Shown: positions 1 to 64,000, counted from the stretch's first letter. The stretch: 64,000 nt of DNA from Alphaproteobacteria bacterium (GCA_965202745.1 CBDBCB010000016.1:28262-92261), one strand, 5' to 3'. Notes: a model not told the origin generated them from the sequence alone. Program-made: numbers and translations.

Positions 1-135
1 GCGGCCTCCGGCCCCGGCGGTCTGCACGCCCTGCGCCGTCTGCTGGCGCGGGCCTTCCTGCTGGCCCATGCGGAGGGGCGCGGGGAGATCACCACGGACG
101 ACATCCTGAGCGCCGCCGCCACGGCCGCCGACTGA
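1..135 (+). CDS. 3' end of an upstream gene (partial); possibly the C-terminus of a phage AAA+ helper protein
   Basis: Frame-1 ORF is open from the window edge to TGA at 133-135 (...GLHALRRLLARAFLLAHAEGRGEITTDDILSAAATAAD). The product guess is inference only. Confidence 0.3.
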   Translation, partial: AASGPGGLHALRRLLARAFLLAHAEGRGEITTDDILSAAATAAD

Positions 136-140
136 TCCGA

Positions 141-176
141 AATCCCCTGAAATCCCCTGAAACTCCCTGAAACCCC
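141..176. repeat. About 3.5 tandem copies of a 10-bp unit (AATCCCCTGA / AACTCCCTGA) ending at the DUF3164 start codon
   Basis: Read directly: aatcccctga aatcccctga aactccctga aacccc, then ATG at 177. Confidence 0.7.
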
Positions 177-879
177 ATGGAGAACCTGACCATGACCATG
201 CCACAGCCACAACAGCCCGACACTGCCCCCGCCACCGCTGCCCCTGACGCAAATGACGGGAGCGGCAACGGCGCGCGGGTTATTGTCGAGGGCGCGGCAT
301 ACCTGCGCGATGCACAGGGCCGCCTGACGCCGGAGGCGCTGGTGCGTCCGCAGGACCTGCTGCATGACGGGATGGTGCGCAGGACCGTCGCCTTCGCGGT
401 CGATCTGTCGGCGCAGATCACACGGTTCCGCGCCCATTGTTTCGACGATATCGCCGCGTTCGATGCGCTGCTGGAGGACGAGTATGGCGGCCATACCCGG
501 CGCTCGGTCAAGGGCAACCGCACCTATCTCAGCTATGATGGGACGATGAAGGCGCAGGTGCAGATCGCCGAGCGGGTGGCGTTCGGGCCGGAGATGCAGG
601 TGGCGCGCGATCTCGTGGACGAGTGCCTCGCCGAGTGGTCCAGGGACAGTGGCAACGAGATGCGCGCCATCGTTGGCCATGCCTTCCAGGTCGACCGCGA
701 GGGCCATCTACAGCCTGCTGCGGCTCGATATCGCCTATGCGCGCTGGCAGCGGGCGATGGCGGCCATCCGCGACGCCATGCGGGTGATGGGATCGAAAAC
801 CTATATCCGATGCTACCGGCGCGAGACGCCGGACGCGGCCTGGATACCGATCACCATCGATCTGGCAAAGGCGGGCTGA
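177..879 (+). pseudogene. Mu-like prophage DUF3164-family protein, apparently frameshifted near 690-705
   Basis: The N-terminal part (ORF 177..) has a DUF3164-like sequence (KGNRTYLSYDGTMKAQVQIAERVAFGPEMQVARDLVDECLAEW...AFQVDREG). The protein-like C-terminus continues in the +1 frame (IYSLLRLDIAYARWQRAMAAIRDAMRVMGSKTYIRCYRRE...LAKAG) and stops 4 nt before the next gene's start. Confidence 0.6.
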
Positions 880-882
880 GCG

Positions 883-1392
883 ATGGCGACGACCCCGACC
901 GCTGCGGCGCGCCGGCCCGGCCGCGCGCGTCTGATGCGCGCGGTCCATGCCGTGTGCCGCAAACTGGGTCTGGACGATGATGCCCGCCACGATGTTCAGG
1001 TCAGGCTCACCGGCAGGACATCGATGCGCGATATGGGAGTGCGCGAACTCGACCGCCTGCTCAGGCATCTGAACGGCCACACGGGGGCCGGACCGGGGGC
1101 GGGAGGCGCGGATGGCGGGCGCCGGCATGCCACAGCCCCGCGGGCCGATCTCCGTCTTGTCCACGCGCTCTGGGGCGAGCTGGGCCGCAGGGGGGCGCTC
1201 ACGCGTCCCGTCCGGGGCGGGCTGAACGCCTTCATCCGCGCCCGCTTCGGGCCGCACTGGGCATTTGTGCCGATGGATGTGGACGCGCTCACCGACACGG
1301 CCTGCATCACCGATGTGATCCGGGCGCTGAGGGCAATGCTGGCCCGCGCGGAGACGAGCGACAGCCCCGACGATGGAGGCTCGGTGACATGA
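883..1392 (+). CDS. gemA: GemA / Mu gp16-like protein (DUF1018)
   Basis: 169-aa ORF with a sequence typical of Mu gp16 (LRHLNG...LVHALWGELGRRGALTRPVRGGLNAFIRARFG). It sits in the Mu early-region position after DUF3164. Confidence 0.6.
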   Translation: MATTPTAAARRPGRARLMRAVHAVCRKLGLDDDARHDVQVRLTGRTSMRDMGVRELDRLLRHLNGHTGAGPGAGGADGGRRHATAPRADLRLVHALWGELGRRGALTRPVRGGLNAFIRARFGPHWAFVPMDVDALTDTACITDVIRALRAMLARAETSDSPDDGGSVT

Positions 1393-1498
1393 AAGCGCGC
1401 ATCCGTATCGCCGATCATGCGGTGCTGAACTGTCTGCATCGCGGCCCCGGTGTCGATGTTGCGGGGCTGCGGCGGCGCCTACGCGCAAAACCGCGGGG

Positions 1499-2281
1499 AT
1501 GTTCATGAGCCGCGCGCGGCCGGACCCACTGCTGATCCGCTGCGGCGATTGCCTGTCGCTGCTGCCGGAGCTGGTGCGCGGCGTCGGCCGCTTTGATCAC
1601 ATCATCACCGATCCGCCCTATGAGGACGTGCACCACGACCATCATGCCCGGGCCTCGATCCGGCGCAGCGACGGGCAGCCCGCGCCGCGCCGCGTCGGCT
1701 TTGACGGTATCGACGCGATCCGCGATCGGGCGGCGCTCGCGATGGTGCGCGCCGCCCGCGGCTGGGTGCTGGTCTTCTGTATCGCCGAGGGTGTGCGGGC
1801 GTGGCGGGATGCGCTGCAGGCTGCCGGGGCGCGCTGGCACGGCACGCTGGCCTGGGTCAAGCCGGACGCGGTGCCGCGCTTTGACGGCGCCGGCCCGGCG
1901 CGCGGATTCGAATGCATCGCCTGCGCCTGGGCAGGATCGGGGCGGCGGCGCTGGAACCGCGGCGGCGGGCGTGGTGTCTATACCTGCCTGACCGCGAAGG
2001 GGGGGCACGCGGCCGCCAAGCCGGAGAGGCTGATCACGGCGCTGGTGGGGGATTTCACGCGCGCCGGACAGGTGGTCTGCGACCCGTTCATGGGCTCCGG
2101 CACCACCGGGCTGGCCGCGCTGCGTCTCGGGCGGCGCTTTTGCGGCATTGAGACAGACCGGAAGACATTCGATACGGCCAGGGCACGGCTTGCGGCGGCG
2201 CGGCGCGCGCCGTCATTGCCGCTGCCGGAGCCGCCTGTTCCGCAGGCGAAATTCGGGCTGGATCCACCATGGGCGCGGTGA
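1499..2281 (+). CDS. Phage DNA methyltransferase (N6-adenine/N4-cytosine class)
   Basis: DPPY catalytic motif (HIITDPPYEDV) and a C-terminal AdoMet motif (DPFMGSGTTGLAALRLGRRFCGIE). Confidence 0.7.
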   Translation: MFMSRARPDPLLIRCGDCLSLLPELVRGVGRFDHIITDPPYEDVHHDHHARASIRRSDGQPAPRRVGFDGIDAIRDRAALAMVRAARGWVLVFCIAEGVRAWRDALQAAGARWHGTLAWVKPDAVPRFDGAGPARGFECIACAWAGSGRRRWNRGGGRGVYTCLTAKGGHAAAKPERLITALVGDFTRAGQVVCDPFMGSGTTGLAALRLGRRFCGIETDRKTFDTARARLAAARRAPSLPLPEPPVPQAKFGLDPPWAR

Positions 2282-2628
2282 CGGGCAAACAGGTGCCCCT
2301 GCCCGGCATTCTCGCGGATATCGAGCGGATCGCGGGTCGCGAGGCGGCGCTGATGATCGCGGTGGCGCATGGCGGGCATGGTGAGTTCTACGTGCCCCGC
2401 CACCCCGCGGGCGCACGGGGGCAGGCCCTGGCGGACGTGGTGGGGCCAGCGGCCGCGGCGCGGATCATGCAGGTCATGGGCGGCGAGGCCGTCAGCGTGC
2501 CGCTGGCCCGCCGGGCGGTGGTGCAATGGCTCTGCGCCGGGGGCATGACATCGACGGAGATCGCAGATCGATTGCGTATCACCCGGCGCACCGCACGGCG
2601 CTACATCAGGGCGGCGAGAGACACCTGA
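2269..2628 (+). CDS. mor: Mor-family transcriptional activator (Mu middle-operon regulator)
   Basis: 119 aa with a C-terminal HTH (GGMTSTEIADRLRITRRTARRYI). Size and position between the MTase and lysis/packaging genes match Mor. Confidence 0.65.
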   Translation: MGAVTGKQVPLPGILADIERIAGREAALMIAVAHGGHGEFYVPRHPAGARGQALADVVGPAAAARIMQVMGGEAVSVPLARRAVVQWLCAGGMTSTEIADRLRITRRTARRYIRAARDT

Positions 2629-2669
2629 CGATCAACGGCTTCCGTGAAATCGAACAGACCCGATGACGG

Positions 2670-3185
2670 GTGATGATGGAGTCGATGGAAATGCCGATCA
2701 GGCCTGGGAACCGCGACCGGTATCCGCCCGACTGGGCAGCGATATCCGGACGCGTGCGCCGCGGGGCCGGCAATTGCTGCGAGCGCTGCGGTGTCACGAA
2801 CGGCGCGATGATCCGACGCGGACATGTTCGGGGCGTGACGGCGGTCTGGCGTCCGGCAAACGCTGCGGACGACGTGGACGGGTTCTGCGCCGAAACAGGC
2901 AATCCGATGCCGGGGACCGCGGTGCAGTGGGGCAAACCTGTCCGGATCGTGCTGACCGTCGCGCATCTGGATCATCGGCCCGAAAACTGTTGTTCCGACA
3001 AACTCCGCGCCTGGTGCCAGCGCTGCCACAACCGCCATGACGCGCCCATGCGGCACGCGGGCATTGTCGCGCGCAGGCGGGCGGCGCGGGCGATCGGTGA
3101 TCTTTTCGGGGACGCCGGGGACACCCCTCCCACGGACCCTCTGCCGGACCATGGTCCGCTACCCCGGCGCGGCGGGTCCGGGTAA
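2670..3185 (+). CDS. HNH endonuclease
   Basis: CERCG...VAHLDHRPENCCSDKLRAWCQRCHNRHD zinc-finger/HNH motif. Confidence 0.65.
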   Translation: MMMESMEMPIRPGNRDRYPPDWAAISGRVRRGAGNCCERCGVTNGAMIRRGHVRGVTAVWRPANAADDVDGFCAETGNPMPGTAVQWGKPVRIVLTVAHLDHRPENCCSDKLRAWCQRCHNRHDAPMRHAGIVARRRAARAIGDLFGDAGDTPPTDPLPDHGPLPRRGGSG

Positions 3186-3216
3186 TATACCCGCAACCGC
3201 AGCCTGGAGCCCGCCG

Positions 3217-3585
3217 ATGATCCCGACGCCCGAGGACTGGCAGAGTTTTGCCGGCATCACCGCCATTGTGATCCTGCTGGGCGGGGTCGTGGTGGCCCTG
3301 CGCCGCCTCGGGCTTCTGCCCGGAGCTTCCCCCGCAGCATCCCGGCCCGTGTCAGAGGTCGCACAGCGGCTGGACCGGCACGAGGGTCGCATTGCGGGCC
3401 TGGAGCAGGCCGTGTCCGGACTGGCCAGCCGCGAGGACATGCACCGGCTTCAGGTGGCGATCGAGCAGCAGGCGGGGTCCATTCACGAACTGCGCGCGCT
3501 CATGGAGCGCGATGCCCTGGCCGTGACGCGGCTTTCCAGCGCCATCACCCGCATCGAGGACCATCTGCTGGGAGACAGGCCATGA
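3217..3585 (+). CDS. Phage membrane protein: N-terminal TM helix plus coiled coil (i-spanin/Rz-like or Mu gp25-like)
   Basis: ATG at 3217 preceded by GGAG. A hydrophobic helix (FAGITAIVILLGGVVVAL) is followed by a heptad-like region (LDRHEGRIAGLEQAVSGLASREDMHRLQVAIEQQAGSIHELRALMERD). Confidence 0.45.
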   Translation: MIPTPEDWQSFAGITAIVILLGGVVVALRRLGLLPGASPAASRPVSEVAQRLDRHEGRIAGLEQAVSGLASREDMHRLQVAIEQQAGSIHELRALMERDALAVTRLSSAITRIEDHLLGDRP

Positions 3586-3881
3586 GCTACGAGACCACAC
3601 TGGAGGCCCACCGCCGTCTGGCGGTCCTGACGCATCTGGCGGAGTGTCTGGACTATGCATCCAATTCCGAGATCCTGCTCGACGTCTGCAACGGGCTCGG
3701 CATCACCACAAGCCGCGACCGGATGATCGGCACGCTGGCCTGACTGCGCGAGGCCGGTCTCCTGGCGACCGGGGATCACGACGGCTTCCTGATCGTCGAG
3801 GCCAGCGCGCGCGGGGTGGACGTGGCGAGCGGTCGCGCCCGGGATCCCGGTGTCAGGCGGCCCGCGCCAGGGCAGCGCTGA
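3585..3881 (+). pseudogene. Small phage protein (winged-helix-like), interrupted by an in-frame TGA at 3741-3743
   Basis: ATG at 3585. The same frame reads MSYETTLEAHRRLAVLTHLAECLDYASNSEILLDVCNGLGITTSRDRMIGTLA*LREAGLLATGDHDGFLIVEASARGVDVASGR... up to TGA at 3879-3881. The stop lies where ...LAWLREAGL would be expected. Confidence 0.35.
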
Positions 3882-3882
3882 G

Positions 3883-4122
3883 ATGCCGCGTCGGCGCCGG
3901 ATCGACCTGCTGCCAGAGGCGTTGCGCTCGTGGCTTCAGGAAGAGCTCAGGGCGCGCGGTTTTGCCGACTATGATGCAGTGACGGATGCGCTGAACGCCC
4001 GGCTCGAGGCCGGGGGGCTGGAGTTGCGCATCGGCCGGTCAGCCGTGCATGCCTATGGCCGGGAGTTCAAGGCGTTCGCGGTCATGCAGGATCAGGCGCA
4101 GGACGAGATCCGCGCGGCATGA
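3883..4122 (+). CDS. DUF3486 protein (Mu gp27-like, putative small terminase subunit)
   Basis: MPRRRRIDLLPEALRSWLQEELRARGFADYDAVTDALNARLEAGGLELRIGRSAVHAYGREF matches the DUF3486 consensus. It lies directly upstream of the large terminase. Confidence 0.6.
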   Translation: MPRRRRIDLLPEALRSWLQEELRARGFADYDAVTDALNARLEAGGLELRIGRSAVHAYGREFKAFAVMQDQAQDEIRAA

Positions 4123-4292
4123 AGGATCTGAGCACGGCGCTGAACGCCCTCATCCGATCAACGAGTCTGCGGCGCGGCATTCTGGCGGGAGCCGGGGAGC
4201 GCGCTGAACAGGCCGCTGTCAGAGCCGGTCTGAGCCCAGAGACCAGCGCGCGGCTGCGCGCCCGGGTCGAGGGCACCGGAGACGCGGCGTGA
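4119..4292 (+). CDS. 57-aa ORF between DUF3486 and TerL; could be the shifted C-terminal part of the gp27-like protein
   Basis: ATG at 4119 overlaps the DUF3486 stop, and the ORF ends in GTGA overlapping the TerL start. Its frame differs from the DUF3486 frame. Confidence 0.25.
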   Translation: MKDLSTALNALIRSTSLRRGILAGAGERAEQAAVRAGLSPETSARLRARVEGTGDAA

Positions 4293-5642
4293 CGTGGAGC
4301 CTGCTGCCCTATCAGCGCGCCTGGATCAGGGAGACCGCGCCGCTGGCGGTGATCGAGAAATCCCGCCACATCGGCATCTCCTGGGCCGAGGCCTATCACG
4401 CGGTCATGCACGCCGCCGACGATCGCGGCGACGTCTATTATCAGTCCTATGACCGGGACATGACGCGCGGATTTATCGAGGATTGCGCCGGGTGGATCGA
4501 GGGGCTCGATGTCTCCGCCCGCCAGGTCGGCGAACCAATTCTGGACAATGACGGGCGTGACATCCAGGTGTTTCGCATCAATTTCGCCAGCGGACGCAGG
4601 ATAATCGCCATGACATCCAGCCCGCGCGGGTTCCGGAGCAAGGGGCGTCCCGGCGATCTCGCGATCGTCGATGAGGCGGCGTTCGTGGACAATATCGACG
4701 CGGTGCTGAAGGCGGCTCTCGCGTTTACCAATTGGGGCGGCCGGGTCCGGATCATCTCGACCCACAATGGCGAGGGCAATGCGTTCAACACCCTGCTGCG
4801 CGATATCCGCGACGGCCGGAAACCCGGTGTCGTGCACCGCGTGACGCTGCGCGAGGCCCTCGATCAGGGTCTCTATTCCCGCATCGCCACGGTCACCGGC
4901 CAGCCCGACACGCCCGGGGCCGCCGCGGCATGGGAGGCGGCGATCCGCGCCCAGCATGGCCATCACGCGGCCGAGGAACTCGACTGCATCCCCTCGGCCG
5001 GCGGCGGGGCCTGGATAACCTTCAATCTGATCCGCGGGGCCGGTCTGGATTGGCGTGGACGTCGCGCGCCGCCGCGATCTCTGGGTCGCCGCCGTGATCG
5101 AGGAAAGCACCGGCACCCTGTGGCTGCGCGAGATCACCACGCTGCGCGATGCGCCGTTTTCCGAACAGCGCGCCGAGATACGCAGGCTGGCCGCGCTCCA
5201 CCGCCCGCTGCGTATCGTGGTCGACCAGACCGGCATGGGCGAGGCGGTGGTGGAACAGCTTCAGGAGGACCACGGGAGCCTGACCGTCGAGGGCGTGCTG
5301 ATGACGGCACCCCGGCGTCTCGATGTGGCCAGCGGTCTGCGCGAGGCCTTCGAGGACCGGTGCATCCGCATCCCCCCCGACGAGGCGCTGCGGGCCGATC
5401 TGCACAGCGTGCGTGCCGAGCCCGGCGGCACCGGCGCGCCGCGGCTTGTCGCCGACCGCTTCTGGGCCATGGCGCTGGCGGTGCTGGGGTCCAATTCGAC
5501 AGCCGGACCGTTCAGGGCGAGAGTTGCGGGCACGCCGTCGCCTGTGCGTGCGGCCTGGGGCGGGCGTCCCGGCTATGAAATCGACCCGGCGGCGGGCATG
5601 GTGCGCTCCCCGCTTGATCCCATACGGTCCTGGAGGATGTAG
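4289..5642 (+). pseudogene. Terminase large subunit (Mu gp28-like), +1 frameshift at a G-run (5036-5039)
   Basis: The N-terminal ATPase part is in frame 2 (LLPYQRAWIRE...IEKSRHIGISWAEA...DLAIVDEAAFV). The nuclease part is in frame 0 (WIGVDVARRRDLWVAAVIEE...RIVVDQTGMGEAV). The join is at cgcggggcc. Confidence 0.7.
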
Positions 5643-5645
5643 AAC

Positions 5646-7087
5646 ATGGACAGTGACACACAGCCCGCGCGGCCCGAGGCGGGCGAGATCACCCCTCCCG
5701 CGCTGACCCTGCAGACAGGCCGCGGGGGTGTGTGGGACCAGACCCGGGCCTGGATGGACGAACTGACATCCGATCCGCGTATACTGCGCGACGGGCGCGG
5801 CAGTGCGCGGCTTCTGGAGGTCACACTCGGCGACCCCAAGGTGCGCGCCTGTCTGGGACAGCGCCTCGATGCGGGCACCGCCGCACCGCTGGAGGTCAAG
5901 CCGGGCGGGCGCATGCGGCGCGACCGCCAGGCCGCGGAGGATCTCGACGGGCAAATGGCCTGCCTCGAGATCGACTGCATCACACGCGAGCTGCTGCACG
6001 GGATCTGGTTCGGCTATGCGATCGCCGAGTGTATCTGGGAGATCGACGGGGGCCGGGTGCGGCTGGCCGATCTGCGGGTGCGCAGCCCCGAGGTGATCCG
6101 CTGGGATCCCATCACCCATGAGCCGCTGCTGCTGACCCGGCAGACCCCTGCGGGCCAGCCGCTGCCGCCCGCCAAATTCGTGCTGCTGACCGCGCCGCGC
6201 ATCCATGGCGGGCAACCGCATGGGCCCGGAATCGGCAACTGGTGTTTCTGGCCGGTCTGGCTCAAGCGCTTCGCCTGCTCCTCCTGGGCCACTGCGCTGG
6301 AGCGTTTCGGCACGCCGATTGCCACGGCGACAGTGCGCAACCGGACCGGCGAGGAGGCGCAGGCCAAGATGCGCGAGGCCCTTACCGCGCTGGCCGCGCT
6401 GGCTTCGGGAACGTCGCTCGTGCTGCCCGAGGGGATCGAAATCGACGTGCTCGAAAGCGCCCACCGCGCCGGTGGAGACTACGGGATCTTCATCCGCGAC
6501 ATGGACCGCATGATTGCCGATGCGGTGATCGGCCAGCACGGCACCGCCGAGATCGGCCCGCATGTGGGTACCGGCGAGGTTCACATGAAGATCCTGAACG
6601 GCTGGTCACCGCCGACGCGCGCCGCTGCGCCGCGAGACCGCCCCATATCGCGCGCGCCTCCGGCATGCGCCCGGCGCAGGATTACATAGAGGACGTCTAT
6701 GGCGGTTCATGGGAGGATGCGCCCCCTCCGGCCATGCCACCCGCCGTGCCCGGGTCGGACGACCCGCCGGCGGCGATGGGCGCACCGCGCCATGCGCTTG
6801 CCGGCCCGCCGACACCACCGACCCCGATTGACGCACTCGTCAACCATCTGATTGGGGAAAACATCGCCTCGGCCGCCGCCGCCCCCCTGACCGCATCCGT
6901 CGAGGCGGCTCTGGCGGAAGCCACCTCGATCGGGGACCTGCGTGCCCGCCTCGACACGATCGGGCAGACCCCGCCGTCCGCCGCCCTTGCCACGCTCGTC
7001 GGGCGGGCCGATTTCGCGGCCGGTCTCGCCGGGGTCACCGACGTTCCGCTGGTGGGGGAACCGGACGGGGCCGACGGGGATGGCTGA
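5646..7087 (+). pseudogene. Portal protein (DUF935, Mu gp29-like), frameshift near 6590-6610
   Basis: 347-aa N-terminal part in frame 0. The C-terminal part (LVTADARRC...DYIEDVYGGSWEDAPP...IDALVNHLIGENIA...TLVGRADFAAGLAGVTDV) is in frame 2 and ends at TGA 7085-7087, overlapping the F start. Confidence 0.7.
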
Positions 7088-8489
7088 ACCGTTCGACCCC
7101 GCGCCCGCCGTCACCCCGGTGTCCGTGACGCCGCAGGAGGCGCTGCAATATTTCCGCAGCAAGGGGTTCGCCCCGCCCGGGAGCCGGTTCTCCTGGACAG
7201 ACTGGTGGGGGGCCTCCCACGCCCGCGGCTTTGTCGTCGCCAAGGCCATGCAGGACGATCTGCTGCGCGACATCCGGGACACGCTGGATCGTGCGCTTGC
7301 CGAAGGCAGCACGATTGCGCAGTTCCGCGACGGGCTCGAGCCCGTCCTGCGCGCCAAAAGCTGGTGGGGCAAGAGGACACTCACCGACCCGCTGACCGGA
7401 GAGACCCGCGAGGTGCAGCTGGGCTCGGCCCGCCGCCTGCGGGTCATCCTCGACACCAACATGCGCACCGCCTACGCGGCCGGCCGGTGGGTCCGCATCC
7501 GGCGCACAGGGGCCGTACTGCCCTTTCTGCAGTATATTCAGCTGCAACGTGTCAGTGCGCGCGAGGCGCACGAACCCTTCCACAGGCTGGTGGTCCCCGT
7601 GGATCACCCGTGGTGGGCCACGCACTTCCCGCCCAACGGCTATTTCTGCGCCTGCCTGACCCGGCAGCTGTCCGGAGCAGCCGTCAAAAGGCGCGGGCTG
7701 ACCGTGACCACCGATCCACCTGTGGATACGGTGCCCTGGACCGACAGGCGCAACGGACGAACCGTGGATGTTCCCGCCGGTATCGACCCCGGCTTCGCAA
7801 GCAACCCCGGCGCGGTCTTTCTCGCCGACCAGGGCCACCTTGACCGCATTGCCGACGATCTCACACCGCAGGCGCGCGGCGTGGAGCTGAGGCTGATCAA
7901 CGAGGCCCGCTCCCGCGGCCTGCGCACCGGCACCGGACATCTCGCCGCCATGGAACTGGACCCGGACCAGCCCCTGACCGAAGGCGGGGTCGAGAGCGTT
8001 GCACCGGTCGGGTGGGTGAGCGGAACCGGGGACGGGGTCAATCCGGACGACGCACTCGGGACAGCCATCGCCGATCCGAACCGCCGGATCGGCGTGATCC
8101 GCAATCACCCGGACTCCCGCGCTCTCTCTCCGCAGGACCTCACCTCCCTCGGGCAGGATCCCGGCCTCGTGCGCGTGGTGGCCGTGGGCCATGATGGCTC
8201 GCTCTACCGCGCCACCAGGCCGCAATCAGGACTGGGTGACGTTACCGGGGCTCTCCATGCGATGTCCGATACCCTCGTCAGTGAGGCGGCCGCGGATACG
8301 GGACTGGATCAGGCCGCTGTGCGCAGGCTGGCTGCCCATGCCTCCGCCAGCGCGCTGGACCGCGCCGGCTACCTGGATTATGCCCACGCCATTGCGGGCG
8401 GCAGCAGGCTGGCCCTCGACCGCCTCGGTGAGCAGGCGATGGACAGGATCATCGATCGGCTGGTGCAATGGCTGGCACGGCAATCATGA
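7080..8489 (+). CDS. Mu F-like head morphogenesis protein (gp30 family)
   Basis: The start ATGGCTGA overlaps the portal stop. The sequence is F-protein-like (FRSKGFAPPGSRFSWTDWWGASHARGFVVAKAMQDDLLRDIRDTLDRALAEG...). Confidence 0.7.
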   Translation: MAEPFDPAPAVTPVSVTPQEALQYFRSKGFAPPGSRFSWTDWWGASHARGFVVAKAMQDDLLRDIRDTLDRALAEGSTIAQFRDGLEPVLRAKSWWGKRTLTDPLTGETREVQLGSARRLRVILDTNMRTAYAAGRWVRIRRTGAVLPFLQYIQLQRVSAREAHEPFHRLVVPVDHPWWATHFPPNGYFCACLTRQLSGAAVKRRGLTVTTDPPVDTVPWTDRRNGRTVDVPAGIDPGFASNPGAVFLADQGHLDRIADDLTPQARGVELRLINEARSRGLRTGTGHLAAMELDPDQPLTEGGVESVAPVGWVSGTGDGVNPDDALGTAIADPNRRIGVIRNHPDSRALSPQDLTSLGQDPGLVRVVAVGHDGSLYRATRPQSGLGDVTGALHAMSDTLVSEAAADTGLDQAAVRRLAAHASASALDRAGYLDYAHAIAGGSRLALDRLGEQAMDRIIDRLVQWLARQS

Positions 8490-8653
8490 CGCGCCCGATC
8501 TCCGCCCGCCATGCCGATGGCAATCTCACCGGATATCTCGAAAACGGCCTTGCCGCACGATTGCAAGCCCGTTGCAAGGCCGCTTTCGGGCTTCGACAGA
8601 CAATCCAACCAATACCGATTGAAAACCCCTGTAAACAAGCCGTTTGAGCGATC

Positions 8654-9025
8654 TCATCCGGCATAGTCCGGATTAACCATTCTTTCTGTCGTCCCACACA
8701 TGGGAATCGCCGTCCGCACCGGCTCCTGATCAGGATGCCCGGTCAGCGACATGAACCCGCTCTCCGCCTGCGCCACCGGATCATAGCCAAGCCGCTTCTG
8801 AAATGGCCCTGTCCGGCCATAGGCTGAGGTTGAGCAATAAATCAGGTCTGGCCGATTAACACTCTCATAATCGAGGGGAAACTTGGTCATGACTCCCGTC
8901 GAGAAATTCTCGATCACCACATCTGCACCCAGGTCGGCCAGGTGCATGGAGGCCAGCGGCCCAGCGATCACCCGGCTGAAATCGGCAACATGTATGCCTT
9001 TCAGCGGTCCCTCCGATGCACTCAC
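8654..9025 (-). pseudogene. Family-III CoA-transferase fragment (N-terminal 123 aa; internal deletion and 3' truncation)
   Basis: LKGIHVADFSRVIAGPLASMHLADLGADVV-IENF... aligns to the N-terminus of the adjacent full-length paralogue. About 60 aa are missing after ADLGADVV, and everything after the GYDPVAQAESG region is absent. Confidence 0.6.
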
Positions 9026-25952: not shown

Positions 25953-25964
25953 GGGGAATTGGGG

Positions 25965-40506: not shown

Positions 40507-40533
40507 TCTCCCCGGCACCAGCAATTTTGGCCT

Positions 40534-50130: not shown

Positions 50131-50295
50131 TTGCGCATCCAAGCAATCATGCATACTCAAGTAAATATCAATTGCAGATTATACCCTTATATGCGCACCA
50201 TATCGCATGTGAGACTAGCCCCTTGGGCAACGCTCATTGAATTGCCGGATCCACGGCAGTCCAAGCCCGCGTTTCGATCCAATGGAAGGTCTAAA

Positions 50296-50851: not shown

Positions 50852-50940
50852 GCCCATCCTTAGCGATCCAATCACAACGCGTGTCAAACAAACAAGTCTC
50901 TCGAGGTGTTGCGTAAAATGAAAACGACCATCGCGGAGTA

Positions 50941-55628: not shown

Positions 55629-56093
55629 ATGGTAAAATCTTCCAGAATCTCAAGCGCCGACGGCTGCAATCCGCACATATCCGCCGAAATCGAAGCGCTA
55701 GTTGAGCGCGGGAAGGAACGAGGCTTCGTCACCTATGATGAGTTGAATGCCGTTCTTCCATCTGAGGAGGTTTCGTCCGAGGAGATCGATGACGTGATGG
55801 CCATCCTTGCGGGGTTCGGCATCAACATCATTGAGATTGACGAAGCGGCCGGTCCGTCGATTATGCGGGAGGAGGAAACCCGCACCTCCGCCGGCAACCC
55901 TGAGAGGCGTGCGCATAGAGTTCTTGGCGTCGAAACCGGGAAATCCACCGCCATTCGTACCGCCAAGGATGGTACCGTGATTATGGCACCGGCGATAAAG
56001 CCACGTAACTTCACTGCCCGCGAAATCCGCGATGCTGTCCGTGCCGTGAAGGAAGAAGAGCGGCAGAAGCAGGCACCCAGCGGCTCAGCCTAG
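55629..56093 (+). CDS. Stand-alone sigma-70 region 1.1-like protein (RpoD N-terminal domain homologue, no regions 1.2-4)
   Basis: ISAEIEALVERGKERGFVTYDELNAVLPSEEVSSEEIDDVMAILAGFGINIIEIDE closely matches alphaproteobacterial RpoD region 1.1. The remaining 80 aa are unrelated to sigma factors. Local GC is about 53%. Confidence 0.6.
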   Translation: MVKSSRISSADGCNPHISAEIEALVERGKERGFVTYDELNAVLPSEEVSSEEIDDVMAILAGFGINIIEIDEAAGPSIMREEETRTSAGNPERRAHRVLGVETGKSTAIRTAKDGTVIMAPAIKPRNFTAREIRDAVRAVKEEERQKQAPSGSA

Positions 56094-56113
56094 GCCAAGC
56101 GGTTCTGCCCCAC

Positions 56114-56752
56114 ATGCCAACATCCAGAGCCAATCCGAAGGCAGTCTTTATCAACTGTCCGTTCGACGGAACCTATACCCCCCTCTTTAAAGCTGTTGTT
56201 TTCGCAGTAGTCCGCTGCGGCTTCCTCCCACTCTGTGCACTTGAAGTGAACAACAGCGCAGACATCCGCATCGAGAAGATTGCCCGCATCATTCGCGAAT
56301 GCCCCATCGGCATCCACGACATTTCCCGGACGGAGCCCGATTCGGTAAACAGCCTGCCCCGGTTCAACATGCCTCTTGAATTAGGCCTGTATCTGGGAGC
56401 CCGTTATTTCGGCGACCGTACCCACCGCAACAAGGCTTACCTGATTCTCGATCGCGAACCGTACCGTTATCAGAAGTTCATTTCAGACATCGCCACCCAT
56501 GGCGACGAGGCGCGGGAAGTCATCAAGGCCGTGCGCGATTTCCTGAACAGCCACAACGGTCCGGAGCCGCTGCCGGACCGGGACCGGTTCCTTTGGCCGG
56601 AATACCAACGCTTCCAGAGCGCACTGCCGGAAATTTGCGCCAAGCTAAAGATCGCCGAGGCAGAACTGCAATTCCCGGACTTCCTCTACATCGTTACTGA
56701 CTACGTCTCCGAGGACACCCCGGAAAACCTCGCCGCCCGCCCTAATCCGTGA
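56114..56752 (+). CDS. Hypothetical protein with a STIR-superfamily (TIR / nucleoside 2-deoxyribosyltransferase-like) pattern
   Basis: KAVFINCPFDGTYTPLFKAVVFAVVRCGFLP and NMPLELGLYLGARYFGDRTHRNKAYLIL resemble the NDT/TIR-like motifs IYLAGPFF and D.GxxxELGYAxAxGKxVLLV. Assignment is by motif recall only. Confidence 0.4.
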   Translation: MPTSRANPKAVFINCPFDGTYTPLFKAVVFAVVRCGFLPLCALEVNNSADIRIEKIARIIRECPIGIHDISRTEPDSVNSLPRFNMPLELGLYLGARYFGDRTHRNKAYLILDREPYRYQKFISDIATHGDEAREVIKAVRDFLNSHNGPEPLPDRDRFLWPEYQRFQSALPEICAKLKIAEAELQFPDFLYIVTDYVSEDTPENLAARPNP

Positions 56753-57378: not shown

Positions 57379-59144
57379 ATGCATGAACGTACGCAACGCA
57401 GGCTAGCCGCCATTGTTTCCGCCGACGTCGTTGGCTATTCGCGCCTGATGGGTGCGGATGAAACCGGCACGCTTGCCGCGCTCCGGGCGCACCGGGCTGA
57501 GCTGATCGACGCCAGGATCGCAGACTTCGGCGGGCGCATCGTCAAGACCATGGGCGACGGCCTGCTATTGGAATTCCCCTCCGTCGTGGATGCCGTGCAG
57601 TGCGTGGTGGAGGTTCAGCAGGCCATGGCCGGGCGCAACGCGGCGGTCGAGCAGAACCGGCACATCACCTTCCGCGTCGGCGTCAACCTTGGCGACATCA
57701 TCATCGACGGCGACGATATCCTGGGCGATGGCGTGAACGTGGCCGCCCACCTCCAGGAAATTGCCGAACCGGGCGGCATTGCTGTCTCCCAGCGCGTGCA
57801 CGACGAGATTCGCGACCGGCTCGACGCGCAGTTTGCCAATGATGGCGAACTGGCCCTGAAGAATATCGCCCGCCCCCTGCAGATTTGGCGCTGGTCACCG
57901 GGGTCGTCTGGACTGCAAACCGGCGGCGGAACAGGAACCGGCCTGCCTGCCGGTGCCGGATATGCCGTCCATCGTGGTGCTGCCCTTCGACAATATGTCG
58001 GGCAATCCGGAACAGGAACAGTTCGCCGACGGCGTTGTTGAGTCAATCACCGCCACGCTCAGCCGTATCCGCACCTTCTTCGTCATCGCCCGGAATTCCG
58101 CCTTTGTTTACAAGGGGAAGGCGAAGAATATGTCGGAGATCGGCCGCGAACTGGGCGTCGCCTATCTGCTGGAGGGTAGCGTTCAGCGGGCGGGCAACCG
58201 GGTGCGCATCACCGTGCAGCTGATCGAAACGGCCCGCGGCGCGCATCTCTGGGCGGAGAAGTATGACGGCCCTCTGGATGATGTCTTCAACTTGCAGGAC
58301 CGCATTACGGAGCAGGTCGCAGGCGCGCTTCAACCCTCCATCCACTCGGCCGAGATCGAGCGCGCCAAACGCAAACGGCCCCAGGAACTGAGCGCCTACG
58401 ACTTCACCATGCGGGCGCTGCGCCATGTCTGGCCGCTGGAGAAGGAGGAGGCCGCCAGGGCGCTGGAACTCCTTGACGAAGCGCTGGCGATTGACCCGGA
58501 ATACCCGCTAGCGCTGGCGGCCTGGTGCTGGGCGCAGCGATCCGTCTACAACTGGGTCGACGACATCGACGCCGCTAAGGCTGAGGCACTGACCCTGGGC
58601 GAGAAAGCCGCCAACCTGTCTTCCGACGATCCGCTGATCCTGACCGTACTCGGCACGATACATTGCTTTGCCCGCAATTTGGGTGCCGCCCGCGTGCTCC
58701 TGGAGCGGGCCATCGCGCTCCATCCCAACTCCGCCTGGGCGCTCAGCAGGCTTGGCTGGCTGGAGGTTTACGCCAACCGGCCCGAAGCCGCGAAAGGCCA
58801 TTTCGAGCGCGCCTTGCGACTCAGCCCCGTCGATCCCATGAACTTCAACGACTACATCGGCCTTGGCTGTGCAGAGCAAATCGGCGGTGCAAACGATGCC
58901 ACCATCGCGTTGTACCAGCAGGCTTTGCAGGAGCGGCCCAACGCCCTATTGGATCCACCGCCAGCTTGCCGCCGCCCTACACGGTGCTGGCCGCGATGCT
59001 GAGGCCCGCGAGTCCGGCGCTGCCCTTCTCGCCGCTTATCCGGAGATCACGGTCCGCCAGATCAAGGAAGCCATGATGCTAAGCCCCCGCGCGCTGGTGA
59101 CCATCGGCCAGCAACTCAACGCCCTCGGCATTCCCGAAGCCTGA
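57379..59144 (+). pseudogene. Class-III adenylate/guanylate cyclase with a C-terminal TPR region; 2 frameshifts
   Basis: CHD domain (IVSADVVGYSRLMG...KTMGDGLLLEF) is in frame 1. The TolB-like/TPR part (PSIVVLPFDNMSGNPEQEQFADG...) is in frame 2, shift near 57950. The C-terminus (YWIHRQLAAALHGAGRDAEARE...) is in frame 0, shift at gccc 58943-58946. Confidence 0.7.
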
Positions 59145-59193: not shown

Positions 59194-60509
59194 CTAAAAC
59201 GCCAGCAGATTATCCCGGAACTGCGCGTGCTCATATGCCTTCCGCACCAGCCCCCGGTCCTGGAGCGCGGGCACCAGCCCGTCCTCAATCTCGGCCAAAA
59301 TCCTGCGGTTCAGGTTCGGCATCGTAAACAGGTAGCCGTCGCCGCCAACCTCCTCCATCACCTCACCCATGCGGTCAGCCACGGACTCGCACGTCCCGCA
59401 CAACCCTATCGAGTAGTCTACCGCGTTAAAGCTCGCCATGGTTTCGCGGATAGAGCGGCCTTTGGCCATCGCCCGGAACTGCTCCAGGTTCAACTGGTGC
59501 CCGTTGGTGGTCACGTCGTCGGGCAAAGGCTTGTCCAGTCGAACTTGCCGAAGTCGATGTTCGTCACCTTGCCAAAATGCGCCAGCCGCGGCTCGATCTG
59601 GGCATCGGCCAGCGCCTGCCTGCGCGCCCGCCGCTCCTCGGCCTCCGCCATGGTTTCGCCCAGGACCGGATTGATCAGGTACAGCACCTTGCAGTCCGCA
59701 GGGTTCCGCCCGCAGGCAATCATGTGGTGGGAGATGTCCTCGCGGTATTCGCGCATCGCCTCGATGCCTTTGGCGTTCACCACAATCGTATCGGCATGAG
59801 CCCCCGCAAACCGCCGCCCCCTGGGTGAGCCGCCCGCCTGGGCAATCACCGGCAGACCCTGGGGCGAAGGCCCGGAATTCAACGGCCCCCGCGTCTGGTA
59901 ATACTGCCCCTCATAGTTCACGCCATGCACTTTCGCCGGGTCTACCAGCACACCGCTCGCCCGGTCGGCCAGCATCGCCCCTGGCTCCCACGAGCCCCAC
60001 AACCCCTTACAGACCTCCATGTACTCATCGGCCATGTCGTAGCGCAGATCATGCTCCGGCATGCCGTCCATGCCGAAATTCATCGCCGCGAAGTCGGAGG
60101 AGCCGGTCACGCAATTCCAGCCCGCGCGCCCCGCCGATACCTGGTCCAGCGTCGCCATCAGCCGGGCCAGCAAATAGGGGTGATAGGCATAGGTGCCAAA
60201 GGTCGGCACGATGCCGATGCGTTCCGTCACCTGAGTCATCAACGCCGCCATCACCGAGGGGTCCTGCCTCGGCACCGCGATGCCGTTCTTCAGATAGATT
60301 TCGGTCGAATTGCCAAAGCTCTCCCCCACATAGGAGGAGTCCTCGATCAGGATATAGTCGAAGCACGCCCGCTCCAGCGACCGGGCCATGTCCATGAACA
60401 GCGTCGGCTGCATCCAGTCGGTGCCGATATAACCGGTCCAGGGCTCGCCCCATGCCTGCACGCTGGAGCCTTGCAGAAACCAGGCCATGTGAAAGGGTTT
60501 GGTGGACAT
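59194..60509 (-). pseudogene. LLM-class flavin-dependent monooxygenase (NtaA/SsuD-like), frameshift near 59535-59540
   Basis: MSTKPFHMAWFLQG... runs to ...HFGKVTNIDFGKFD, then continues in another frame as LDKPLPDDVTTNGHQLNLEQFRAM... Confidence 0.7.
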
Positions 60510-60610: not shown

Positions 60611-61370
60611 CTAAATCATCACGGAGAAGCCGCCATCCACCGGAATGGCCGTGCCCGTCACAAAGTCGGAGCCAGGGCTCGCCAGGAACACCGCGATGCC
60701 GGAATGGTCGTCGGGCCTGCCCCAGCGCCCCGCCGGGGTGCGGTCCAGCACGCTCTGGTGCAGGCCGTCCACCTGCTCCCGAGCCTTGACGGTCAGCGCG
60801 GTGTCAATCCAGCCCGGCAGGATGGTGTTCACCTGGATGTTGTCGATCGCCCAGGAGGTTGCCAGCGACTTGCCCAACTGGACGATCCCGCCCTTGCTGG
60901 ACGAATACGGTGCAGAGAACGAAGCGCCGAAGATCGACATCATGGAGCCGATCATGATGATCTTGCCGCCGTCCTGGGCCTTCATCGGCGCGTAGACGGC
61001 CTGGGAGCACTTGAAGGCGCTGGTCAGGTTGGTGGTCAACACCTCCTGCCACTCGGCCAGATCATAGTCCTGGGGCTGCTTGCGGATGGCGGTGCCGGCA
61101 TTGTTGACCAGGCAATCGATACGCCCGAACCGGTCCAGGGTCGAAGCCACCATGGCATCGCAGGAGGCCGAATCTGCCACGTCCACCACCACGGAGTCTG
61201 CATCGACACCCATGCTTTTGAGCTTGGCGACCGCCTTCGGCATTCTTCTCCGTGTTCCGCCCCGCCACCATGATGGCCGAGCCCGCATCCGCCAGCCCCT
61301 CGGCCATACCCAGGCCGATACCACCGTTTCCACCGGTTACCAGCGCAACGCGGCCGGAAAGGTCAAACAT
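60611..61370 (-). pseudogene. Short-chain dehydrogenase/reductase, frameshift near 61232-61240
   Basis: N-terminus MFDLSGRVALVTGGNGGIGLGMAEGLADAGSAIMVAGRNTEKN is in one frame. The rest (AVAKLKSMGVDA...NNAG...YSSSKGG...) is in another. Confidence 0.65.
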
Positions 61371-61504
61371 TTTGGAAGGCATGGGGGTCACTCCTTGGAA
61401 ATACCTATCGGGAATGCCGTTGCGGCAAGGATTGTTGTTGAGAGATCGTTAGCGCTGCAGCCCCGCATAGGCAAGCTCCGCCCTATGCAGCTACCACGCG
61501 CTCC

Positions 61505-62521
61505 CTATAGTGACGGGCAATCAATCGCTCCCAAATCACAGAGACATCTCCAATGGACCTCCCTGTCCCATCCAGGAAGGTAATATGGCTGTTTCCTGAC
61601 CAGCTCTAGTTTGAGTTTTCGCCATCCCTTCATTGCCTGCAAGGGCGTCTTGCTGCCCAGGGCTGATTGCGGCAGCGGCTGGGTGTAAAGCCAGACATAG
61701 CGAAGCAGCGTGGCTTCCAGAACCTCGCCGGATCGGAAGGGATGGCTCTGCAGAACCTCTTCGATGCGGCCATTGAACCGTTCGACCATACCGTTGGTCT
61801 GAGGTGACCTAGGCGGCGTCAGGCGATGATCGATATCGAGGGCGGCGCCCAGCGTGTCGCATTCATGCGCGCCTGTTGCGGCGCGCTGGCGCAGACCGAA
61901 GAGGCGATCCGTGAACTCTTTTCCATTATCCGGGAGTATGGGGCGGATCCGCATCGGGCAGGCGCGCTCCAGGGCGCGCAGGAAGCGCCGGGCATTGGCC
62001 GCTGTCTTGCTGTTGTAGACCCTGACAACAACCCAACGCGTTGCCCTGTCGATGGCCACGAAGAGGGAACGGCGGCGGCTCTCTCTGCCATCGGTGGCAA
62101 GTATTTCAGGTCGATGGGGATGGAACCGGGTTCATAGGCTTTGAAGGCGCTGTGCTTTGGCCGGGGCGATGCTGCTTTCAGGGCGCGCAGGGCCCCCACG
62201 CCATGCCGACGCAAGCAGCGGTCAAGGCCAGAGCGGGAGGCCTTCGGGTTCAAGAACTCGCGCACCACCGCCAGCAGATCATCCAGCGAGACCAAAAGCG
62301 TCTTGCGGAGGGCCACCGCGACAGCTTCCTGCGCTGGCGTCAACGTCGTCTGAAGGCGATGGGGCGTGTGGCTGCGATCCTCCACGCTGGCACCATTTCC
62401 ATACGGTCTGTTCCGTGGTCCCGTGACGCTCGGCAAGAACCCACGCAGGGTCGTCACTGGCCTGTATGGCCGCCCTGATCTTCGGTGGCGTCGTCGCCTG
62501 ACTGTGAAGCTTGATCACCAT
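61505..62521 (-). mobile_element. Degraded IS481-family insertion sequence (transposase split over three frames)
   Basis: N-terminal HTH part MVIKLHSQATTPPKIRAAIQASDDPAWVLAERHGTTEQTVWKWCQRG. Middle part ...RPKHSAFKAYEPGSIPIDLKYLPPM.... rve-core part ...DNGKEFT...HRLTPPRSPQTNGMVERFN. All are in different minus-strand frames. Confidence 0.6.
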
Positions 62522-62689
62522 GTCGCTCTCCCATCCCGCGCCTCGGTCAAAACACAGCGTGCCATGAAAAACGCAGAGCGACGAGGGGCTATCTGATCAG
62601 CCGGGATGGAACACTTAGCTCCCGGGTCAACAGAAATCGCCGATTTCGCTTTTTTCACTGAGCCCAAAATGCCTCACAAATTGTTAATG

Positions 62690-63118
62690 TCAGCTGGACG
62701 GGCTGCGCACTGGAATGTTCAAAGGTGCCATTTGCGCCGGCCGCGGCGCACCGGACAATTCCGGTGCCGATGCCGGCCCGCCAGCAGACGAACCGGCTGC
62801 CCGCGCAGCTTCGGCTTCCAACAGCCGCACTTGTTCCGCTCTGGCTTCCGCCGATGGCAGACCTTGCGGCATTGGCGGAAAATCGCCCAGTTTCGGGAAC
62901 GGGGCATCCTGGCTCTGCGGCTGCCTCGACAACCGCCAGGGTCTGTCAGACGGCGGCGGCGAGATGTCGTTCAGCCAGTCAGAGGACTCGCGATAGCCAC
63001 CAGCTAGCGACCCGCCGCCACACGCACCGGCAAGCAAACCGGCAGCGACGGCCGTCACCACGGCCAACCAACGCCGGGTCAGTTTGAAATTGGTCAAAAG
63101 CAGCGCTGTAATTACCAT
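62690..63118 (-). CDS. Hypothetical lipoprotein (Pro/Ala-rich)
   Basis: Signal peptide plus lipobox (LAVVTAVAAGLLAGAC). The sequence is low-complexity, so this could be spurious. Confidence 0.3.
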   Translation of the reverse strand: MVITALLLTNFKLTRRWLAVVTAVAAGLLAGACGGGSLAGGYRESSDWLNDISPPPSDRPWRLSRQPQSQDAPFPKLGDFPPMPQGLPSAEARAEQVRLLEAEAARAAGSSAGGPASAPELSGAPRPAQMAPLNIPVRSPSS

Positions 63119-63229
63119 GTAATCTTCTATATGTAGATAACGCGTCGAGCATATGCGTGTTTAAGGACCGACTCCATCCCCGGCAACTCTGTTGTTACCG
63201 GAACGCGGCAGCGGCAGAGGACCAGAGAG

Positions 63230-64000
63230 ATGACAGAGGCGAGCAATCCATCATCCGAAATGACCAAAGAACTGGGTGAACTGGCTGAGCGTAGCCAGAA
63301 ACTGGTTCAGGATTTTCTGGCCCGTACAGCGGCAAGCGGTGCGCCGGAAGCGGATGGCGATGTCGACCCCGGCGGCATTGGCCGGGCGTTTCTGGAAATG
63401 ACCCAGAGCATGATGAGCGATCCGCAAAAGATGGTGGAAGCCCAAACCCAGCTTTGGCAGTCCTATATGCAACTGTGGAGCAATACGACCCGCCGCATGC
63501 TGGCCCAGGAAGCGGAACCGGTCGCCGCTCCGGTAAAGGGCGACAAGCGCTTCCGGGATGCCGAATGGTCAGAGAATTTTGTCTTCGACTACATCAAGCA
63601 ATCCTACCTGTTGGCCGGCCAGTGGCTGATGCACAATGTGGAAGACACTGAATTCCGCGACGATCACACCCGGGAAAAAGTTAATTTCTACATGAAGCAA
63701 TTCGTGGACGCGATGGCACCGACGAACTTTGCCGCCACGAACCCGACCGTGCTCAAAGAGACGGTGGAGACCCGCGGTGAGAACCTGGTACGCGGCCTGA
63801 ACCATCTGCTGGAAGACCTGGAAGCAGGCCAAGGGTCGCTGAAGATCCGTCAGACCCCGCCCGACACCTTCGAGGTCGGTAAGAACATTGCGGTCAGCAA
63901 GGGCAAGGTTGTCTTCCAGAACCGGCTGATGCAGCTCATGCAGTTCGAACCGGCTACCAAAACCCAATTCGAACGGCCATTGCTGATCGTGCCGCCGTGG
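63230..64000 (+). CDS. phaC: Class-I poly(3-hydroxyalkanoate) synthase, 5' partial (runs off the window)
   Basis: The ORF is open from ATG 63230 to the window end. PhaC N-terminal region present (FVFDYIKQSYLLAGQWL...FVDAMAPTNFAATNP...LLIVPPW). Confidence 0.8.
   Translation, partial: MTEASNPSSEMTKELGELAERSQKLVQDFLARTAASGAPEADGDVDPGGIGRAFLEMTQSMMSDPQKMVEAQTQLWQSYMQLWSNTTRRMLAQEAEPVAAPVKGDKRFRDAEWSENFVFDYIKQSYLLAGQWLMHNVEDTEFRDDHTREKVNFYMKQFVDAMAPTNFAATNPTVLKETVETRGENLVRGLNHLLEDLEAGQGSLKIRQTPPDTFEVGKNIAVSKGKVVFQNRLMQLMQFEPATKTQFERPLLIVPPW

Follow-up and report, generated by a model that had tools for sequence, protein, structure and literature searches.

About 20 of the approximately 63 genes in a 64,000-nucleotide stretch of DNA from an alphaproteobacterial assembly (GCA_965202745.1, CBDBCB010000016.1:28262-92261; the whole stretch is referred to here as the window) are broken, and most of the lesions that break them probably arose very recently, as genuine mutations that inactivate chromosomal genes of an uncultured alphaproteobacterium. 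The comparisons show the lesions with their types and contexts, their absence from the relatives and the low ratio of non-synonymous to synonymous divergence in the broken genes. Both the presence of these lesions in the DNA of the organism and their cause, which would be relaxed selection or a raised mutation rate, we infer from the sequence. A minority of the 1-bp frameshifts may be assembly errors, and a mixture of the two is plausible.

The genes were assessed by comparison with Pfam, the PDB, an annotated phage and four related loci from metagenomes or metagenome-assembled genomes (MAGs; L004, L100, L101 and L103, described below). At least 18 frameshifts, four nonsense codons, one lost start codon, a truncated CoA-transferase gene and a truncated Mu-like prophage are found; the multi-base lesions include an 8-bp deletion, a deletion of ~125 bp and a 2-bp insertion. 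The pseudogene fraction within the window is thus ~30%, compared with the few per cent that are typical of free-living bacteria. A frameshift was accepted when homologues aligned in two to three frames, or when Pfam or PDB coverage was divided between neighbouring open reading frames (ORFs); the portal gene of the prophage is the exception, its frameshift being placed from ORF structure and coding phase instead of homology. An earlier note on this DNA had listed the disrupted genes as about 20 of about 65, and a disruption is seen at or near every coordinate that it gave. The frameshift and gap in the TerS gene, the TGA codon at 13867-13869 and the sizes of the 8-bp and 1-bp deletions in the IS481 transposase are additions to that list, as are the 2-bp insertion in the h125 orthologue and the end of the prophage after MuF beside the CoA-transferase remnant. 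Some genes have been hit repeatedly, with three lesions in the RTX protease gene and two each in the IS481 transposase, adenylate cyclase and peroxidase genes, but this clustering is indistinguishable from chance in this sample.

The composition of the window changes at ~8.4 kb, where the GC content drops from 0.70 to 0.60 (70% in bases 1-8400 and ~60% beyond); GC periodicity at third codon positions is strong across the window. The chromosome past the prophage includes dapD, dapE, htpG, fdxA, carD, phaC, a tRNA-Ala gene and the genes of a Suv3-like helicase and an S4 protein, the tRNA-Ala being the sole match in an Rfam scan of the window. The best matches of HtpG and of the acetyl-CoA-synthetase (ACS), at 81-94% identity, are all metagenome contigs or MAGs, after which the identity drops to ~64% for the next-best matches, labelled Stellaceae or 'Alphaproteobacteria bacterium', and for this reason the lineage is regarded as uncultured. 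For the sdhA-like flavoprotein, none of the genome-contig matches listed exceeds 70% identity, and the search of metagenome contigs with the sensor kinase matched only domains of 35% identity. Two catalogued proteins, P0364 (HtpG) and P0241 (a fragment of the adenylate cyclase), are identical to products of the window, and both are encoded on one contig of 214,499 bp.

The reference loci come from relatives of this lineage. L004 (Logan SRR30207553) is syntenic with the window at 29.7-49.6 kb; L100 and L101 are parts of the 5,157,465-bp contig ctg7572_18x_c (ENA ERZ25071297) and are syntenic with the window at 9.8-26.5 kb and 41-49.6 kb, respectively; L103 (ERZ25039549 contig_14216) serves as reference for the htpG region, and L005 and L007 serve as references for the ACS region. 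A 5.16-Mb circular genome is among these relatives, and it carries intact copies of genes that are broken in the window. The protein identity of conserved genes with their counterparts is 85-96% and the synonymous divergence (dS) is ~0.6-0.8; the relatives are different species and not strains.

Nature and distribution of the lesions

The four nonsense codons are found at positions where homologues have W, W, W and Q. In the gp26-like gene of the prophage (3588-3869, plus strand), a TGA at 3741-3743 takes the place of the W of the phage P1 gp26 homologue ('ELTWLAENG' compared with 'GTLA*LREAG'), and a single-frame alignment passes through the stop. The DNA alignment of a CoA-transferase family III gene (24786-25949, plus strand) with its 93% identical L100 orthologue also runs in one frame, with TGA at 25698-25700 instead of TGG; the Pfam match is split here at profile positions 295/299, and W is common in this column of the family. 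In the gene of the ketopantoate reductase PanE (47712-48662, minus strand), a TAG at 47877-47879 replaces the CAG of two relatives, at the Q of the conserved stretch 'SMYQD'. The fourth is the TGA at 13867-13869 in the RTX protease gene, at a W of the orthologue ('GGNTIWGGNGD' compared with 'GANTI*SGNGD'), which is a C-to-T change on the plus strand. For the other three, the earlier note had proposed G-to-A changes on the plus strand from ancestral TGG, TGG and CAG codons. The homologues, having W, W and Q, agree with these ancestral codons, but the direction of change is uninformative, because every transition that creates a stop codon is necessarily a G:C-to-A:T transition. Around these three sites no shared sequence motif or methylation-type motif is seen (CTG[G>A] twice and CCT[G>A]A once).

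Transitions make up 25% of the single substitutions that would create a stop in these coding sequences, and all four observed changes are transitions (P = 0.004 for an unbiased spectrum). Only 2.8% of random substitutions in these sequences create a stop, so that ~100-200 consensus mismatches per 100 kb would be required to account for four. The probability that consensus mismatches produce at least four stops is 3e-6 if they occur at 6 per 100 kb, and it is still only 0.008 if they occur at 50 per 100 kb; the benchmark for R10.4 metagenome assemblies is 6 mismatches per 100 kb, with 4 indels over the same length (PMC13087279).

Two lesions that the earlier note had reported are also observed here. 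The NQO/Flavodoxin_2 gene (34056-34721, plus strand) lacks a canonical start, having ACA at the ATG of the orthologue and no ATG, GTG or TTG before 34110; its GGAG Shine-Dalgarno-like motif is kept, and it is conceivable that the ATT at 34065 is used as a rare start. The truncated CoA-transferase is a family III remnant at 8714-9007 (minus strand; tBLASTn and blastx), which abuts the prophage end and covers residues 4-34 and 93-164 of a 390-residue relative.

The sequence context of the frameshifts was assessed by comparing the longest homopolymer run at the 18 localized sites with that of random intervals of equal length. At 15 of these sites the longest run is 2-4 nt, with no excess over random intervals (P = 0.15-1.0), and no run exceeds 2 nt at the kinase site, at one RTX protease site (site a), in the h125 orthologue, in TerS and at both IS481 sites. 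The window has 31 runs of at least six bases, and eight of these fall within intact frames. Chance accounts for most of the homopolymer association, and the indels are balanced, with ~7 net insertions and ~7 net deletions. Consensus indels of long-read assemblies are described as homopolymer-derived (PMC9262707), but in the window neither a concentration in homopolymers nor a restriction to single-base indels is found. The density of the frameshifts, at least 18 in 64 kb, is ~7 times the 2.6 expected at 4 indels per 100 kb.

The distribution of the lesions over the genes follows conservation. When considering genes with orthologues in the relatives, one frameshift is found in the 19.5 kb at or above 85% amino acid identity compared with five in the 8.9 kb of less conserved genes (P = 0.014), which is modest evidence, the classes having been defined after inspection. 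The weakly conserved genes (<85%) are 31% of the sequence, yet they have five of the six frameshifts and seven of the ten lesions. The dapD, dapE, htpG, fdxA, carD, Suv3-like helicase, lyase, carboxyltransferase and ACS genes are intact, and no housekeeping gene is hit. In addition, PanE and NQO/Flavodoxin_2 are both absent from L103 (PanE between TauD and CarD, L103 4244-5951; NQO/Flavodoxin_2 between the carboxyltransferase and a YscW-like lipoprotein, L103 14365-17063), and they are therefore considered to be dispensable in this clade.

Genuine decay and its alternatives

The earlier note had weighed real decay against assembly error and leaned toward the former for the three nonsense codons that it listed. 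Genuine decay is favoured here as well, but assembly artefact stays a serious alternative for the 1-bp frameshifts, and several observations weigh on that side. The source of the window is a draft contig of 214,499 bp (in NCBI and ENA), and the collections searched yielded no further assembly of this species. The names 'ctg7572_18x_c' and 'contig_14216' are presumably in the metaMDBG and Flye styles, a recognition by naming style and not by a test, and on this basis long-read metagenome assemblies are likely for the relatives. Runs of at least six bases are present at three of the 18 frameshift sites (A8 at 18495-18502, G6 at 39294-39299 and A6 at 14229-14234, each P <= 0.02), and it is for these sites that the claim of the earlier note, that the indels are commonly at short homopolymers, holds, the other 15 being like random intervals. 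Outside the mobile elements there are 13 frameshifts, all of 1 bp but one of 2 bp, and the lesion positions show no obvious departure from uniformity along the window (by rough estimate, with no formal test). The ratio of non-synonymous to synonymous divergence (dN/dS) is 0.07-0.30 in the broken genes, which is the range of the intact genes and has no signature of neutral drift; the lesions are therefore either very young or artefacts. Raised dN/dS in pseudogenes, as in degrading genomes, is thus not seen, which for a degrading genome fits only very recent inactivation. Neither dN/dS nor three-taxon branch comparisons can separate decay from artefact, as all the broken genes look constrained. 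It is therefore possible, although in our judgement unlikely, that the window belongs to a low-coverage, long-read-only draft MAG in which indel errors left in the consensus account for most of the 1-bp frameshifts. Only the lesions of the prophage and the insertion sequence (IS) would then be real, together perhaps with the nonsense codons. It is known that frameshift errors persist in nanopore bins of low coverage (PMC9262707; PMC13087279), and undisturbed purifying selection in the broken genes, the three sites in runs of 6-8 bases and the near absence of chromosomal frameshifts other than +/-1 bp would all be in agreement with this. Genuine decay is nevertheless favoured, because four nonsense codons, all transitions, are implausible as random consensus mismatches, and because the 8-bp and ~125-bp deletions, the 2-bp insertion, the two truncations and the lost start are not of the types that consensus miscalls generate. 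It is also favoured because 15 of the 18 frameshifts are outside long homopolymers, several without any run above 2 nt, with insertions as frequent as deletions, and because the density of the frameshifts is above the benchmark, the conserved genes are spared and PanE and NQO are dispensable. That HtpG and PanE have no excess of non-synonymous change on the window branch, in a three-taxon comparison, is counted on the same side. Moreover, the 44 kb of L100 and L101 (18x by contig name) shows full-length gene calls throughout.

Two other explanations accept the lesions as real. In the first, which is a version of genuine decay, mismatch-repair loss in a mutator lineage would have caused a recent, genome-wide burst of transitions and 1-bp indels. 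The four transitions among four nonsense changes (P = 0.004), the chromosomal indels of nearly always 1 bp and the equally young appearance of the lesions are in agreement with such a burst, but loss of mismatch repair favours homopolymer indels, whereas most of the sites are off runs, and the absence of excess non-synonymous change on the window branch in HtpG and PanE is also not in its favour; we regard it as improbable. No mutS or mutL locus is present within the 64-kb window. In the second, the genes would stay expressed by programmed frameshifting, transcriptional slippage or stop reassignment. A TGA at a W position accounts for three of the four in-frame stops, as would fit UGA being read as Trp, and slippage during transcription could occur at the A8 run 18495-18502. 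However, there are just three in-frame TGA codons in ~55 kb of coding sequence, the inspected W positions are TGG, TGA ends many genes and one of the stops is TAG, while most of the frameshift sites have no slippery sequence and the shifts are in both directions, and this explanation is very improbable indeed.

If the lesions are genuine, a recent relaxation of selection on accessory functions, or a raised mutation rate (for example by mismatch-repair loss), would have allowed G:C-to-A:T transitions, slippage-type indels of 1-2 bp and occasional larger deletions to become fixed in dispensable genes. Core and housekeeping genes would stay under purifying selection, and a gene already hit could gather more lesions. 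The losses would then comprise the Mu-like prophage, the IS481 element, secreted RTX proteins, signalling proteins, redundant CoA-transferase and short-chain dehydrogenase (SDR) paralogues, PanE and NQO. Recent host restriction, a small population and mismatch-repair loss are candidate causes, between which a choice would be beyond the reach of 64 kb. More tentatively, the window may represent an uncultured alphaproteobacterial family at the very onset of genome degradation, brought about by a recent move to a restricted (possibly host-associated) lifestyle or by a mutator burst. This suggestion, which we hold with less than even confidence, is based on the HtpG identity of at most 64% with named groups (such as Stellaceae), on the loss of ~30% of the genes at so recent a date that no neutral drift is visible in any of them, and on the intact genes that are kept by the sister species, one of which has the 5.16-Mb circular genome.

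Broken genes and their surroundings

The truncated Mu-like prophage occupies positions 1-8490 (plus strand, 70% GC), as seen from Pfam matches and from collinearity with Rhodovulum phage vB_RhkS_P1 (NC_031059), its closest annotated relative, referred to here as P1. Its genes encode DUF3164, GemA, a DNA methylase, a Mor-like HTH protein, DUF2730, a gp26-like protein, TerS (Gp27), TerL, Portal_Mu and MuF, and the Mu-type module of Gp27 TerS, TerL, Portal_Mu and Mu F, together with GemA, Mor and DUF3164, is therefore present by Pfam. Genes gp16-gp35 of P1 are collinear with the window at 24-65% amino acid identity, and the order DUF3164, GemA, Mor, DUF2730, gp26, TerS, TerL, portal, MuF is common to both. 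Unlike P1, the window prophage stops after MuF, five of its ~11 genes are broken and the lysis amidase of P1 is unmatched. Protease, capsid and tail genes are lacking past MuF, and the P1 genes from the protease and capsid onwards are unmatched. A functional prophage would have a transposase and a complete set of genes for head and tail, which are not found in the window. The prophage end at ~8.49 kb adjoins the host CoA-transferase remnant, and the left part of the element lies beyond the window. Among viral contigs, MuF has only relatives of at most 41% identity, and no near-identical prophage was found there for a comparison at the base level. By analogy, the element may be compared with the defective Mu-like prophages of marine Alphaproteobacteria.

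Besides the nonsense codon of the gp26-like gene, four disruptions are seen in the prophage, all on the plus strand. In the DUF3164 gene (276-870; tBLASTn with P1 gp16, and Pfam), there is a frameshift between 610 and 758 (net +1): residues 13-176 of P1 gp16 align in frame 3 (276-758) and residues 135-220 in frame 1 (610-870), and the Pfam match ends at profile position 138 of 194. In the Mu gp27-like TerS gene (3883-4232; tBLASTn and Pfam), the alignment to residues 1-75 of the homologue is in frame 1 and that to residues 118-154 is in frame 3; the two meet at position 4107, and residues 76-117 (~42 codons) are missing there; the Pfam Gp27 match covers only profile positions 1-60 of 173. A single deletion of ~125 bp would account for both the gap and the frame change. 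The TerL gene (4298-5639) has a frameshift at ~5033-5041 (net +1), with Terminase_6N in the ORF at 4208-5575 and Terminase_6C in the ORF at 5031-5639, and with high-scoring segment pairs of homologues ending or starting at 5035-5041 and 4983. The portal gene (5646-7087) probably has a frameshift at ~6593-6690, which is a weaker case than the others: the Portal_Mu match covers profile positions 3-260 of 336, with a stop at 6687, and the phase of GC at third codon positions (GC3) shifts at ~6600 to another frame, whose ORF extends to 7087 and overlaps the MuF start at 7080.

The sensor histidine kinase gene (10404-12136, plus strand) has a frameshift at 11801-11807 (net -1), which separates HisKA and HAMP in one ORF from HATPase_c in the next; residues 9-519 of the L100 orthologue align in frame 3 and residues 526-635 in frame 2, and four more homologues give the same split. 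The gene of the RTX (serralysin-like) metalloprotease (13561-15480, minus strand), when aligned to the 952-residue L100 orthologue and Pfam, shows two compensating frameshifts in addition to its TGA codon. The out-of-frame block at ~14235-14425 has in-frame homology on either side, and one of the two shifts is at the A6 run 14229-14234. The kinase and the protease are only 52-68% identical to the L100 proteins at the same positions, with saturated dS, whereas their neighbours have 91-93% identity and dS values of 0.6-0.85, and the region of the RTX protease has a GC content of ~0.54 without GC3 bias. These sequence comparisons point to replacement of alleles, or to genes gained horizontally, at positions that are conserved. 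L100 also has genes in this region that the window lacks, namely four extra genes (~3 kb at L100 3846-6860, one of them for a UGSC-domain protein) that separate the acyl-CoA dehydrogenase from the RTX protease, and an extra gene of 257 codons (~1 kb, L100 20575-21644) between the CoA-transferase and a racemase. In the window, no more than 50-60 bp stand in their place (13507-13560 and 25940-26002), which reflects either deletion here or insertion there.

Two of the frameshifted genes belong to a group of three small genes (17902-19773) 3' of the ADP-forming ACS, which keep their position in four genomes and have no Pfam family. They are 28-52% identical between genomes in which the ACS is ~90% identical, pointing to very fast evolution (L005, L007 and L100). 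The orthologue of h125 (17902-18236, plus strand; tBLASTn in frame 1 and then frame 3) has a 2-bp insertion, GA[CA]TATC, at 18066-18072, and taking out these 2 bp in the L100 DNA alignment restores 'TDINLAQGDIV', compared with 'TDINLADGDIT'. The orthologue of h305 (18306-19224, plus strand) has a frameshift (net +1) at the A8 run 18495-18502, with residues 1-62 of the orthologue in frame 3, ending at 18491, and residues 64-305 in frame 1 from 18496. Further downstream, a hypothetical gene on the minus strand (19819-20436) has at its 3' end a perfect tandem duplication of 33 nt (11 codons) at 19827-19892, with two 100%-identical copies, which is either a very recent in-frame event or an assembly stutter.

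The first of two frameshifted SDR genes (30729-31480, minus strand) has a 1-bp deletion at ~31355-31357, which is seen as a single-base gap in the 82%-identity DNA alignment with L004; the Pfam match is split at profile positions 33/34, and tBLASTn matches are in two frames. The gene of an animal-type haem peroxidase with RTX repeats (37798-39950, minus strand; Pfam and ORFs) has a -1 shift in the G6 run 39294-39299, with An_peroxidase profile positions 2-145 and 143-530 in different frames that join at 39291-39297. A second lesion lies upstream, at ~39700-39775, where position 39771 has a TGA and the domain is not preceded by an in-frame start. This peroxidase is absent from L004 and L103, where the interval between htpG and the carboxyltransferase (L004 8552-11215; L103 11996-14248) has one DUF3604 gene of 750 codons, 86% identical between the two. 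In the window, the corresponding interval at 36424-41070 has instead a DUF3604-like ORF of 410 codons, the peroxidase and two small ORFs. The DUF3604-like ORF (36424-37653) is 53-59% identical to the gene of the relatives and lacks residues 1-160 and 317-491; it was considered as a deletion-riddled pseudogene, but it is a single open frame with coding-like GC3 and is left unclassified. In L103 itself, the calls at 199-2951 are short neighbouring ones (SH3_3 of 109 residues, one of 83 residues, Amidase_2 of 85 residues and a GMC_oxred_N fragment of 209 residues), which may be split genes in that assembly too.

Two tandem VPLPA-CTERM paralogues (exosortase-type sorting signal) are found at 50293-51504, both with signal-peptide-like N-termini and with bodies that have no Pfam match. 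In the first (50293-50916, plus strand; three-frame translation), an extra G at 50809-50811 puts the C-terminal anchor 'IGGLALLSRRQR' in another frame, while the intact tandem paralogue ends in 'VPIPAALPLMAAGIGGLALLARRRK'. A pair of neighbouring ORFs at 55629-56752 was considered as a further frameshift and rejected, the second ORF having its own ATG 20 nt past the first stop. The first, of 154 codons, has little beyond the Sigma-70 region 1.1 domain (Sigma70_r1_1) and the second, of 212 codons, has no family match, and they are judged to be two separate genes. The gene of the adenylate cyclase with TolB_N-like and TPR domains (57388-59138, plus strand; Pfam) has two +1 frameshifts, at 57900-57950 and 58940-58946, and homologues of 580 residues align successively in frames 1, 2 and 3. 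In the luciferase-like monooxygenase gene (59197-60509, minus strand; NTA-monooxygenase/DszA family), a 1-bp deletion at ~59535-59540, GAC[C]TGGAC, separates an ORF of 332 codons, corresponding to residues 5-325 of PDB homologues of 440-453 residues, from the next ORF, corresponding to residues 302-410. The second SDR gene (60614-61448, minus strand; Pfam and blastx) has a +1 frameshift at ~61231-61238, with adh_short profile positions 1-47 and 35-193 in different ORFs.

The IS481-family transposase gene (61565-62521, minus strand) is closest to a copy on a Thioclava nitratireducens plasmid (NZ_CP019439), at 77% nucleotide and 56% amino acid identity including the rve core. The homology to rve (DDE) transposases places it in the family. 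Unlike the Thioclava copy, it is inactivated, by an 8-bp deletion at ~62382 and a 1-bp deletion at ~62084 (DNA alignment), which jointly restore the frame and leave the protein alignment garbled from 62380 to 62060.

Comparison with known systems

If the lesions are real, the window captures an uncultured alphaproteobacterial clade at the point where reductive genome evolution begins. Intact sister genomes are available for comparison, and the case could show which functions are lost first, namely mobile elements, redundant metabolic paralogues, signalling proteins and the secreted RTX proteins. If they are artefacts, a public draft genome would have ~30% of its genes falsely fragmented, to the detriment of protein databases and of counts of pseudogenes; one such fragment, P0241, already has an entry in a protein catalogue. 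Either reading is a known kind of phenomenon, with nothing conceptually new.

Long-read-only assemblies with residual errors (PMC9262707; PMC13087279) have in common with the window the splits by 1 bp, the draft contig and the otherwise perfect conservation of the split genes. The window differs in its off-homopolymer sites, its balanced insertions and deletions, its nonsense and multi-base lesions and its spared conserved genes, and its indel density is far above the published benchmarks for R10.4 and HiFi data.

Early genome degradation is well known from bacteria that have recently become restricted to a niche, such as Sodalis glossinidius, Mycobacterium leprae, Shigella, Yersinia pestis and Burkholderia mallei. 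The window shares with these the high share of pseudogenes (~30%), the mixed decay by frameshifts, nonsense codons, deletions and decaying mobile elements, the sparing of housekeeping genes and the youth of the pseudogenes, which have one to three lesions each. It differs from them in that no IS expansion is seen in the 64 kb, where the one IS481 copy is itself broken, and in that the nearest relatives are intact. The features of a degrading genome that are found in the window are therefore the high pseudogene fraction, the several classes of lesion and the sparing of conserved genes.

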